64,000 nt of DNA. It comes from a phage. The translations under genes and the position numbers were made by a program. Location of the stretch: assembly GCA_019326865.1 (NCBI GenBank), contig GCA_019326865.1_4101.1. The stretch is one strand, 5' to 3'. Positions within the stretch are counted from its first letter, which is position 1, and each line of letters starts with the position of its first letter. Below are positions 28,477-29,244 of the stretch, one piece after another. The notes under the pieces were generated by a model. It saw only the letters and a program-made list of their open reading frames with translations, made no database searches and had not been told where the DNA came from.

Positions 28477-28671
28477 ATGGCAGACAAAACATTTTATGAT
28501 CGTATTATTGAAGACAAGGGAGTTTTTGATAAGGTGGTTTATGACTTAGAACTTATGATCAAAGACGCACCAAATCCACGAGTACGAACACAAGCAGAAT
28601 TTGCAAAAACTTATCTTGTTCAAGTTCAAGCAATCTGTGAAGCAATTAAAAAACACAATGATAGAACTTGA
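28477..28671 (+). CDS. hypothetical small protein
   Basis: 64-aa ORF; its 3' end overlaps a consensus promoter. Confidence 0.45.
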   Translation: MADKTFYDRIIEDKGVFDKVVYDLELMIKDAPNPRVRTQAEFAKTYLVQVQAICEAIKKHNDRT

Positions 28672-28696
28672 CAGAACCAACGTTCTATCCTATAAT
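28668..28696 (+). promoter_or_regulatory. sigma70-type promoter (TTGACA-17-TATAAT)
   Basis: Perfect -35 and -10 hexamers with 17-nt spacer, 45 nt upstream of IF3-like start. Confidence 0.65.
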
Positions 28697-28740
28697 TACT
28701 ATTGAACAAAACATTAAAATCATATTGGAGCTTTTATTAC

Positions 28741-29244
28741 ATGAAATCTATTATTGCCAATAACGAAATCACCGCAAAAACTGTCCGTTTGGTAACGGAA
28801 GGAACAAGTGAGGTCATGGCAATCTCTAAAGCATTAACTTTAGCAGAAAATCAAGGTTTGGATTTGGTGGTTATTGGTGCTGGTGATGAACCTGCTGTAA
28901 AAATTACTGATCTTAACAAATACAAGTACGAATTGAAACAAGCTGAAAAAGCATCTCTTAAAAAACAGCGACAAAACGCTATCAGTGTTAAAGAAATTCA
29001 ATTCAATTTTGGTACACATGAGCATGATTTGAAGATTAAAGCCAAAAGTGCTGAGAAATTTCTTGATGAAGGAAAACATGTACATATTGTAATGAAAACT
29101 TCAGGACGTGGAACTAATGCATCTGTAATTCAAGCTAATATTAATGCAATGGAATCATTCGTTAATCGTTTGGGTAACGTTTCATATGTTCAAAAAGTGG
29201 AGTTCCAAGGTAAGAAGGTAACCTGTACTGTCAAAGTAAAATAA
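28741..29244 (+). CDS. infC: translation initiation factor IF-3-like protein
   Basis: Matches remembered E. coli IF3 along its length: VRL..EG, GLDLV.I....EP.V.I.D, VKEI.F....HD, GRG motif; start at 28741 after GGAG RBS. Confidence 0.7.

Follow-up and report, generated by a model that had tools for sequence, protein, structure and literature searches.

An IF3 homolog with conserved expression signals and a degenerate RFRGR motif in an Asteriusvirus jumbo coliphage

Results

The window that we analysed is a stretch of 64,000 nucleotides from an Asteriusvirus jumbo coliphage, with 97.6% identity to Escherichia phage UE-S1, in agreement with the phage origin given in the first-pass annotation. 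On its + strand, at 28741..29244, lies an ORF of 167 aa (ATG start, TAA stop) that is a two-domain homolog of IF3 and scores above the curated family cutoffs. The first-pass annotation had aligned it by eye with bacterial IF3 along its whole length, and profile searches bear this out. Both Pfam domains, IF3_N (residues 7-71, 59.3 bits with a cutoff of 26.9, 4.3e-16) and IF3_C (residues 81-165, 50.9 bits with a cutoff of 34.8, 1.5e-13), were found in the expected order, and the NCBIfam infC equivalog model TIGR00168 matched residues 6-154 with 109.3 bits (cutoff 60). PHROG 9787 (4.6e-70) and the IF3 chains of the PDB (8e-17) were also matched, and E. coli IF3 aligned by BLASTP at 38% identity over residues 7-123. 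The similarity spans both domains and is not confined to a short stretch of low complexity.

The predicted structure gives the same picture. The AlphaFold model (mean pLDDT 82.5) has the order of elements expected for IF3, and Foldseek against the PDB retrieved full-length, ribosome-bound IF3 with TM scores of 0.71-0.77 (among them 5lmn_X, bound to the 30S subunit, TM 0.71), as well as the single domains 1tig (CTD, TMt 0.85) and 1tif (NTD, TMt 0.77). The N-terminal domain (28759..28953, residues 7-71) is alpha/beta, with elements E14-19, E22-27, H28-37, E41-46 and E52-56 in the model, and the C-terminal, 30S-binding domain (28981..29235, residues 81-165) is beta-alpha-beta-alpha-beta-beta. Between them the alignment to E. 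coli IF3 places a lysine-rich linker (28954..28980, residues 72-80) that falls within a long Lys-rich model helix (58-79). The pI of 9.5 and the net charge of +8 are the same as in E. coli IF3.

The program-made ORF list offers a longer version of the gene beginning at TTG 28702. We rejected it because this TTG lies at or 5' of the expected transcription start and has no Shine-Dalgarno sequence, and the additional stretch is not kept as coding in the relatives, in which its indels do not come in threes. The GenBank records of the relatives all begin the gene at the ATG. This start is found in all the relatives among phages of Enterobacterales, whereas E. coli infC begins with ATT, a difference to which the first-pass annotation had rightly drawn attention.

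A predicted sigma70-type promoter precedes the gene at 28668..28696 (+ strand), with the -35 hexamer TTGACA (28668-28673) and the -10 hexamer TATAAT (28691-28696) separated by 17 nt, i.e., with 12 out of 12 consensus positions matched. Its -35 hexamer shares bases with the TGA stop codon (28669-28671) that ends the 64-aa ORF upstream, and from the end of the -10 to the ATG there are 44 nt, within one base of the 45 nt first given along with the perfect hexamers. The match is beyond chance, as the window contains four perfect consensus promoters (0.03 expected) and, allowing up to one mismatch, 15 sites (2.3 expected), all of them on the + strand. The IF3 promoter is one of a class of sigma70-like intergenic sites located 28-49 nt 5' of + strand genes of the window. 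In 10-11 cultured relatives and 17 of the 18 IMG/VR loci the hexamers keep their positions, with a diverging spacer between them, and promoter, Shine-Dalgarno sequence and ATG are all kept across the lineage of ~350-kb phages. We infer that the promoter is active, and likewise which sigma factor uses it. Relatives in this lineage encode an RpoD-like sigma of their own, and because of this it is not certain that we are dealing with an early promoter served by the host RNA polymerase.

Taking the transcription start from the position of the -10, the 5' UTR would be about 36-38 nt long (28703..28740, + strand) and its Shine-Dalgarno sequence, GGAG (28727-28730), lies 10 nt 5' of the ATG and is conserved in the relatives. 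The leader is unstructured (MFE -2.3 kcal/mol, z = +0.9 against shuffled sequences). We considered whether it might be a regulatory RNA or be structured in the manner of ribosomal protein operons, and discarded this on that ground and for want of any Rfam match in the window.

The gene order 196 aa, 64 aa, IF3, ClpS-like, KTSC is conserved in the lineage. The ClpS-like protease adaptor (29258..29803, + strand, 181 aa) has its ClpS domain at residues 74-139 (Pfam 2.7e-5, above cutoff; PHROG 15940), always adjoins IF3 in the relatives examined and is probably co-transcribed with it, no terminator being predicted between the two genes in our scan. It is followed by a KTSC-domain protein (29875..30420, + strand, 181 aa, Pfam 1.4e-13), also conserved in position, a domain that Iyer et al. 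(2021, PMC7824862) noted together with IF3 and as translation-related. Two more genes on the same strand (30392..32772) code for two proteins, one of 529 aa, annotated in relatives as "virion structural protein", and one of 264 aa. The scan found no + strand terminator with a strong stem between IF3 and position 32774, where an intrinsic terminator begins (32774..32814, a 14-bp stem followed by T8); the UE-S1 record annotates a terminator at the equivalent place. IF3 would then open a unit of five genes (IF3, ClpS-like, KTSC and two more) running from the sigma70-type promoter to this terminator.

Such company could point to a role outside initiation, e.g., the release of RbfA or of hibernation factors from 30S or 70S particles to wake dormant ribosomes, or a task tied to the ClpS-like adaptor and virion-associated proteins. 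The order with the ClpS-like, KTSC and virion protein genes is strictly conserved, ClpX adjoins IF3 in phage Phosso, relatives encode an S30EA/HPF-type protein, and host IF3 releases RbfA from 30S subunits (PMC7145577). However, activities of this kind would belong to a working IF3 as sub-functions and would not compete with it as an explanation, and in the table of phage CBB the IF3 gene carries no virion-protein flag. We regard this explanation as very improbable.

Every relative down to 50% identity carries IF3 in this position, and so does each of the 18 IMG/VR loci. All the copies are intact, with their expression signals conserved, and dN/dS ranges from 0.07 to 0.23 (0.07-0.14 at unsaturated distances); both domains and the linker are under purifying selection. 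In the RaK2/PBECO4/GAP32/CBB lineage of ~350-kb phages the gene belongs to the core and has been inherited vertically. These data, together with the 38% identity to the host protein, refute the idea of an inert passenger, whether acquired from the host not long ago or decaying as a pseudogene; all that speaks for it is that phages in general take up genes of their hosts. A recent acquisition from the host was discarded separately on the identity and on the distribution across relatives. A word-indexed protein search reached the phage clade only and an exhaustive one gave 5504 matches; the nearest outgroups of the clade come from metagenomes, and the contigs of several of them are ~330 kb long or longer.

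We mapped the functional residues by alignment to E. coli IF3 and followed the conservation of each column over 26 members of the phage clade. Phage residues D96, K100, K102, K106, K119 and R123 correspond to E. coli D106, K110, R112, R116, R129 and R133, R16 to R25 (an invariant column), K54 to R66, and Y63 to Y75, at the end of the N-domain just before the linker, where the column is Y except for F in two relatives. Thus R25, Y75, D106, K110, G132 and R133 are shared with the bacterial factor, and positions 66, 112, 116 and 129 stay basic, with K in place of R. The columns involved in 30S binding (K110, D106 and the basic 112, 116, 129 and 133) are invariant or nearly so. Petrelli et al., in 2003, reportedly assigned C-domain residues of IF3 to 30S binding by arginine scanning. 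Of the retained positions, K110 is the one altered in the non-binding mutant K110L, and Y75 is changed to N in the E. coli fidelity mutant infC362 (PMC7145577). The comparison of ribosome-binding residues with those of the host that the first-pass annotation had suggested thus gives retained 30S-binding positions next to a degenerate RFRGR motif. The counterpart of 129-RFRGR-133 is K119-T120-S121-G122-R123 (29095..29109, + strand), with small non-basic residues in place of F130 and R131.

A protein that keeps its binding residues and has lost part of a functional motif could be a decoy, binding 30S subunits non-productively or displacing host IF3 and so shutting off host translation. A strong promoter free of autoregulation, as predicted here, would suit this purpose, and the Sharanji paper cites other jumbo phages in which ribosomes are targeted right after infection. 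However, the phage relies on the same ribosomes and on canonical Shine-Dalgarno and AUG signals to translate its own mRNAs, so that a general block would hurt it as well; a simple blocker would need neither both domains nor a linker region with Y75 and R25, all under purifying selection; and in Vibrio phage 2.275.O the gene for ribosomal protein S21 is inserted next to IF3, which suggests support of initiation. A decoy is, to our mind, improbable.

The change at position 131 is characteristic of the clade. A basic residue is present there in only 2 of 47 phage-clade members versus 115 of 136 other IF3 representatives (an unlabelled set from outside the clade), and the residue is R or K in every PDB chain from E. 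coli, P. aeruginosa, T. thermophilus and G. stearothermophilus. Position 130 is T, A or V in the clade instead of F. The phage protein lacks both the aromatic residue at 130 and the basic one at 131; the motif is a functional detail on which the curated family models do not depend, and the protein passes these models. R131 contacts the start codon, the R131P mutant raises initiation at non-AUG codons, on leaderless mRNAs and with initiator tRNAs without the three G-C pairs, and replacing RFRGR by the mitochondrial KKGK relaxes discrimination and lifts the inhibition of leaderless mRNAs (PMC11775629).

Proofreading by the phage IF3 is possibly weakened, judging from its sequence. A factor occupying the 30S site without F130 and R131 might inspect codon-anticodon pairing less stringently, compete with host IF3 and shift the range of accepted start sites and mRNAs (weak ones, leaderless ones, re-initiation in packed operons). 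The mutant phenotypes and the clade-wide pattern at 130 and 131 would fit, although the comparison set is unlabelled, and Y75, D106 and R133, fidelity-linked or conserved, are retained. The phage, moreover, shows no particular need of it. Of the 64 starts of the window supported by a Shine-Dalgarno sequence 61 are ATG (with a crude start caller that has a mild ATG tie-break), so elevated use of non-ATG starts is not supported as a reason for a relaxed factor. Nor are leaderless mRNAs, since the promoters leave leaders of 28-49 nt and are followed by Shine-Dalgarno sequences. A phage initiator tRNA matched to the altered IF3 was discarded as well, for the window contains no tRNA, and the "tRNA-Met(cat)" of the relative Sharanji, despite its CAT anticodon, is not an initiator but a 90-nt long-arm tRNA without three G-C pairs in the anticodon stem. 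We consider a relaxed-proofreading factor possible but doubtful.

Discussion

Our preferred reading, with a probability of roughly 0.6, is that of a working IF3, made early and free of the autoregulation of host infC, that supports initiation during infection, possibly with weakened proofreading. With its two-domain fold, its basic charge and the residues needed for the 30S platform, the protein would bind host 30S subunits and most likely act as IF3, keeping the subunits apart after recycling and promoting the formation of initiation complexes. Host IF3 is limited by autoregulation through its AUU start; with an AUG start, a good Shine-Dalgarno sequence and a leader free of structure, the phage gene should be translated outside this control. 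Initiation capacity would in this way be supplied during a long infection with host gene expression shut down. A phage IF3 might also, as the first-pass annotation proposed, tilt start-site choice or ribosome recycling toward phage mRNAs. The data above show the family membership, the fold, the purifying selection and the conservation of expression signals and gene order; the use and timing of the promoter, the binding to 30S and the benefit to the phage are what we infer. The S21 gene of the Vibrio relative points in the same direction. At 38% identity to host IF3 the compatibility with the E. coli 30S subunit is unproven, and the phage protein may not do everything that the host factor does, because the RFRGR motif is degenerate and R99-P100 and E134 are changed.

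A more elaborate version would make the RaK2-like IF3 a specialised factor with relaxed proofreading, in which 30S binding is kept and the F130/R131 sensor lost; made early and outside host feedback, it would progressively replace host IF3 and impose start-site rules set by the phage, possibly with the help of the ClpS-like and KTSC proteins (and S21 in the Vibrio relative). We think this unlikely. If proofreading were indeed relaxed, there would be a ribosome pool whose rules of start-site selection are set by a phage. The absence of the R131 start-codon sensor throughout the clade gives a concrete prediction that can fail.

The gene was already known, and the window is a re-encounter with it and not a discovery. 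The record of the near-identical UE-S1 in GenBank already carries the IF-3 annotation, and the same gene is found at the same locus, with the same flanking genes, in RaK2-like jumbo phages (UE-S1 UES1_033, PBECO4 gp458, 121Q gp47, RaK2 ORF153, GAP32_313, CBB_318, Sharanji WNN14575). The protein of the window is 97-98% identical to those of UE-S1, ph0011, 121Q and PBECO4, and 53-69% to those of RaK2, GAP32 and CBB. With respect to the annotated genes there is no difference of substance, the window being another isolate of the same genus. Published mentions are at the level of annotation, in papers on CBB (2017, PMC5259590), on the comparative genomics of jumbo phages (2021, PMC7824862) and on Sharanji (2025, PMC11895373), none of which contains functional tests of the gene; in the supplementary files for CBB the only match is the gene-table row CBB_318, with no entry named Porf_318 or orf_318. 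The literature searched contained neither experimental work on any phage IF3 nor transcriptome or promoter data for the RaK2-like group, and in the accessible papers we saw neither the conserved promoter nor the degeneration of RFRGR reported. What is added here is the conservation of promoter, Shine-Dalgarno sequence and ATG, the gene order, the dN/dS values, the retained 30S-binding positions and the degenerate motif. Virus-encoded initiation factors illustrate the extent to which large phages can take over the host ribosome, and this one belongs to an E. coli phage, with a culturable host and a mature genetics and biochemistry of IF3 (infC362, infC135, reconstituted systems, cryo-EM of 30S-IF3).

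Compared with bacterial IF3 (InfC, TIGR00168, E. coli b1718), the phage protein shares IF3_N, the Lys-rich linker and IF3_C, besides fold and charge. However, it is without the basic N-terminal extension of ~10 residues of E. coli IF3, R99-P100 have become N-F, F130-R131 T-S and E134 G, and R147 is lost. The phage gene starts with ATG within a phage operon, whereas E. coli infC starts with ATT within thrS-infC-rpmI-rplT. The AUU start and the thrS-infC-rpmI-rplT context are features of the cellular gene and not of the protein family.

Loss of R131 in an otherwise intact C-domain, as in the phage protein, is also seen in mammalian IF-3mt (KKGK), in mycoplasma IF3 (P, F or Y at 131) and in E. 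coli infC135 (R131P), all of them unrelated lineages. In these systems the change goes together with leaderless mRNAs, with non-AUG starts or with initiator tRNAs of an unusual kind, and the phage shows no sign of any of the three.

Huge phages carry genes for IF1, IF3 and ribosomal proteins (Al-Shayeb et al. 2020, PMC7162821), and S21 is known from phages as well (Mizuno et al. 2019, PMC6375957). Our phage has in common with them that components of translation initiation are found in very large phages and are presumed to redirect host ribosomes. Weaker homologs of IF3 turned up by tblastn in Atu_ph07, in Phosso and in two records of huge phages, LR756500 and LR756503. The IF3s of huge phages form separate and more canonical lineages (Phosso keeps RP at 99-100 and RFKGRE), whereas the clade to which the gene of the window belongs is specific to the ~350-kb RaK2-like lineage.

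IF3 in the Jumbo Phage Lineage

The gene at 28741-29244 (+) runs from an ATG to a TAA stop and its 167-residue product is a translation initiation factor IF3. Pfam detects both IF3_N (residues 7-71, 4.3e-16) and IF3_C (residues 81-165, 1.5e-13), the two exceeding their gathering scores, the NCBIfam equivalog model for infC (TIGR00168) gives 109.3 bits vs. a cutoff of 60, and PHROG 9787 ("translation initiation factor") aligns over its full length (4.6e-70). The top PDB sequence matches are the IF3s of E. coli and Thermus (ca. 1e-16), and BLASTP finds 38% identity to E. coli K-12 IF3 across residues 7-123. 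The AlphaFold model, for which 26 members of the clade of RaK2-like phage IF3s were used as input (mean pLDDT 82.5), places a long linker helix (58-79) between an alpha/beta N-domain and a C-domain of beta-alpha-beta-alpha-beta-beta order, and Foldseek matches it to full-length 30S-bound IF3 (5lmn_X, TM 0.71; 9ss1_F3, TM 0.70) and to isolated IF3 domains (1tig, TMt 0.85; 1tif, TMt 0.77). Because all these searches converge on IF3, the homology that the first-pass annotation had recognized by eye is borne out, with both domains present and similarity extending far beyond a short stretch. A mechanical ORF list opened the frame at TTG 28702, a start that we rejected: transcription is expected to begin at this codon or downstream of it, there is no Shine-Dalgarno, and relatives do not preserve the stretch as coding sequence. 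The ATG is the start in all GenBank records of relatives.

Over 27500-30500 the sequence shares 97.6% identity with Escherichia phage UE-S1 and ca. 92% with PBECO4, 121Q, slurp01, G17, Sharanji, and others, all of them Asteriusvirus jumbo phages of 320-385 kb. The UE-S1 copy (UES1_033) is annotated as "translation initiation factor IF-3," and an identical or similar name is found in 121Q, slurp01, SP27, phAPEC6, Sharanji, PBECO4, RaK2, GAP32, CBB, and others. By tblastn, IF3 homologs are present in 98 phage records, including the whole group of RaK2-like phages of Enterobacterales (53-98% identity), Xanthomonas XaC1 (50%) and Vibrio 2.275.O (38%), while those of Sinorhizobium Phosso, Agrobacterium Atu_ph07 and metagenomic huge phages are more distant and more canonical. 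IMG/VR added 18 further loci, the complete contigs among them being genomes of 345-371 kb. An exhaustive search of 1.84 billion representatives gave 5504 IF3-like matches, only five at E <= 1e-30, and the closest outgroups are metagenomic proteins, several on contigs of ca. 330 kb or longer. Judging from these identities and this distribution, the gene is an old core gene of the lineage, passed on vertically and not captured recently from E. coli.

The feature is not novel, since in this phage group it has been both annotated and described in print. The CBB paper (PMC5259590, 2017) credits that phage with an IF-3 that has homologs in GAP32, 121Q, PBECO4, and RaK2, and huge phages carry IF1 and IF3 (Al-Shayeb et al., 2020). 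Iyer et al. (2021; PMC7824862) suggested that the IF3 and KTSC protein of "group 2.2" jumbo phages may help in ribosome rescue or in phage translation, and the Sharanji paper noted the gene with the comment that its role in phages cannot be stated (PMC11895373, 2025). The literature searched yielded no experimental study of any phage IF3 and no transcriptome for this group of phages. The remaining interest lies in the role of IF3 in the phage and in a motif, RFRGR, that is degenerate throughout the clade.

Predicted Promoter and Transcription Unit

The perfect sigma70 consensus described in the first reading is indeed there, with TTGACA at 28668-28673 (+), a 17-nt spacer and TATAAT at 28691-28696 (+), 44 nt from the hexamer end to the ATG, and a Shine-Dalgarno GGAG at 28727-28730 (+). 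The window contains four perfect TTGACA-N17-TATAAT sites (0.03 expected) and 15 with at most one mismatch (2.3 expected), 15/15 on the + strand. The whole window is extremely strand-biased: of its 90 long ORFs, 87 are on the + strand as well. Among the 15 near-consensus sites, nine or ten fall in short intergenic gaps, 28-49 nt upstream of a + strand start codon and followed by a Shine-Dalgarno, and since most share this arrangement the IF3 promoter belongs to a genuine class of promoters and is not peculiar to the IF3 gene. Examples of such sites before gene starts are 40299, 44428, 45633, 46862, 54522, 56613, and 62004.

When 13 relatives are aligned both hexamers are fixed in position and the spacer and flanks diverge. 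The pair reads TTGACA..TATAAT in PBECO4, vB_Ec-M-J, Turkey5, Munch, and CBB, TTTACT..TATAAT in RaK2, TTGACA..TATTAT in EJP2, TTGACT..TATAAT in Serratia BF and TTGACT..TACAAT in GAP32. A site scoring at least 9/12 is also found 34-44 nt upstream of the ATG in 17 of the 18 IMG/VR loci, with GGAG and ATG conserved. Such a pattern amounts to a phylogenetic footprint and points to a promoter that is probably functional. Its use by host sigma70 is uncertain, since these phages encode an RpoD-like sigma of their own (Sharanji gp182).

The predicted 5' UTR lacks structure, folding less stably (MFE -2.3 kcal/mol) than its shuffles, and Rfam had no match anywhere in the window. Transcripts from upstream could read through into IF3, as no + strand terminator was predicted in the stretch that separates it from the helicase gene. 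The next convincing terminator downstream, a strong intrinsic one with a 14-bp stem and T8 at 32774-32814 (+), also appears in the UE-S1 annotation at the equivalent position, and the predicted transcription unit would thus comprise IF3, the ClpS-like, KTSC, and 529-aa proteins and a 264-aa protein. Right behind the terminator lies a TG-extended promoter-like sequence, TTGAGA-18-TACAAT (32808..32837), upstream of a gyrase B-like gene at 32872. Another promoter-like site (11/12, TTGACA-17-TATGAT, 28472..28500, +) could be an internal promoter or chance; the ATG (28477) of the 64-aa ORF preceding IF3 falls within its -35.

A Probable Working IF3 and Its Start Codon Motif

Selection acts on the protein, with pairwise dN/dS vs. 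relatives of 0.07-0.14 at unsaturated dS and up to 0.23 beyond. In pI (9.5) and net charge (+8) it matches E. coli IF3. The C-domain of IF3 has reportedly been studied by an arginine scan (by Petrelli et al. in 2003). Residues R25, Y75, D106, K110, G132, and R133 are identical to E. coli, and R66, R112, R116, and R129 have become lysine, all these columns being invariant or nearly so in the 26 clade members; the 30S-binding residues, whose comparison with the host factor had been suggested as a check, are therefore kept or changed from R to K. In published work (PMC7145577), K110L abolishes binding, and the Y75N change of infC362 affects fidelity and dynamics.

Our preferred reading is that the gene would encode a working IF3 at the head of a conserved unit, driven by a strong promoter of the sigma70 type. 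Host IF3 is capped by AUU-based negative feedback, the E. coli infC start codon being ATT, and the contrast with bacterial infC drawn from the phage ATG holds. The AUG start, together with the good Shine-Dalgarno and the open leader, would place phage IF3 outside this feedback. The protein would bind the host 30S platform through its conserved basic C-domain, and may sustain subunit anti-association, recycling, and initiation-complex formation during the long jumbo-phage infection. If it still rejects AUU, host infC would be repressed in trans and host IF3 gradually replaced; if it no longer does, host infC would be de-repressed.

Unlike E. coli IF3, the phage protein lacks the first ca. 10 basic residues, has N-F for R99-P100 (S/T/A plus F/Y elsewhere in the clade), G for E134 and no R147. 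The most notable difference is K-T-S-G-R in place of 129-RFRGR-133. A neighbor-joining tree of 183 IF3 sequences puts this protein and all known phage relatives in a clade of 47, two of which (both near its base) have a basic residue at position 131 vs. 115 of the 136 sequences outside; position 130 is T/A/V within and F/Y/L/M outside. PDB chains have R131 in E. coli, P. aeruginosa, and T. thermophilus and K in G. stearothermophilus. Bacteria conserve RFRGR strongly, and its R131 makes contact with the start codon; the R131P change increases initiation from non-AUG codons, on leaderless mRNAs and with initiator tRNAs lacking the three G-C pairs, while the mitochondrial KKGK relaxes start-codon discrimination and, swapped in, abolishes the inhibition of leaderless mRNA by excess IF3 (PMC11775629). 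The clade-wide degeneracy, together with these effects, suggests the hypothesis that phage IF3 binds the 30S subunit and proofreads less, which we did not find stated in the literature examined. However, there is no tRNA in the window and the Sharanji CAT-anticodon tRNA is not an initiator, 61 of 64 Shine-Dalgarno-supported starts in the window are ATG, and mRNAs predicted from the sigma70-like promoters have leaders. With these three tests negative or neutral, the phage has no obvious demand for relaxed start selection, and we therefore rank this hypothesis second to an IF3 working in the ordinary way. The Sharanji gene, annotated as tRNA-Met(cat) (35374..35463, -, of our Sharanji locus), spans 90 nt, encodes its CCA end and has a long variable arm; the three G-C pairs of an initiator are missing from its anticodon stem, GCCGA/TCGGT, and its identity could be Met, Ile2 or other.

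Gene Neighborhood

From E. coli phages as far as Xanthomonas XaC1 the order is conserved: a Dda/RecD-like helicase, a ca. 190-aa and a 64-aa protein, IF3, a ClpS-like adaptor, a KTSC protein and a ca. 525-aa virion protein. The ClpS-like Clp-protease adaptor (29258..29803, +; Pfam ClpS 2.7e-5 over residues 74-139, after a ca. 70-aa N-terminal extension) is directly 3' of IF3 in every relative examined, and in Sinorhizobium phage Phosso a ClpX-like ATPase directly upstream of IF3 takes the place of this neighbor, a recurrent pairing of IF3 with Clp components. Vibrio phage 2.275.O has a ribosomal protein S21 gene (2015..2260 of its locus; Pfam 9.2e-13) between IF3 and the ClpS-like gene. Given the part that S21 plays in 30S initiation (Al-Shayeb et al., 2020), this insertion supports an initiation role of the IF3 module. 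The KTSC gene (29875..30420, +; Pfam 1.4e-13), marked as structural in the CBB record, is overlapped by the 529-aa gene (30392..31981, +), a "virion structural protein" in the annotation of relatives, whose sub-threshold MA3 match (E 0.0021, 18.4 bits vs. a cutoff of 23.2) is probably noise. Genes for ribonucleotide reductase, DHFR, RNase HI, helicase, and gyrase/topoisomerase II elsewhere in the region fit early or middle expression. The RNase HI-like ORF (25986..26432, +) begins within the final part of the DHFR gene (25486..26007); its start is ambiguous in a minor way, a TTG in the ORF list vs. a position 18 nt further in according to the UE-S1 annotation.
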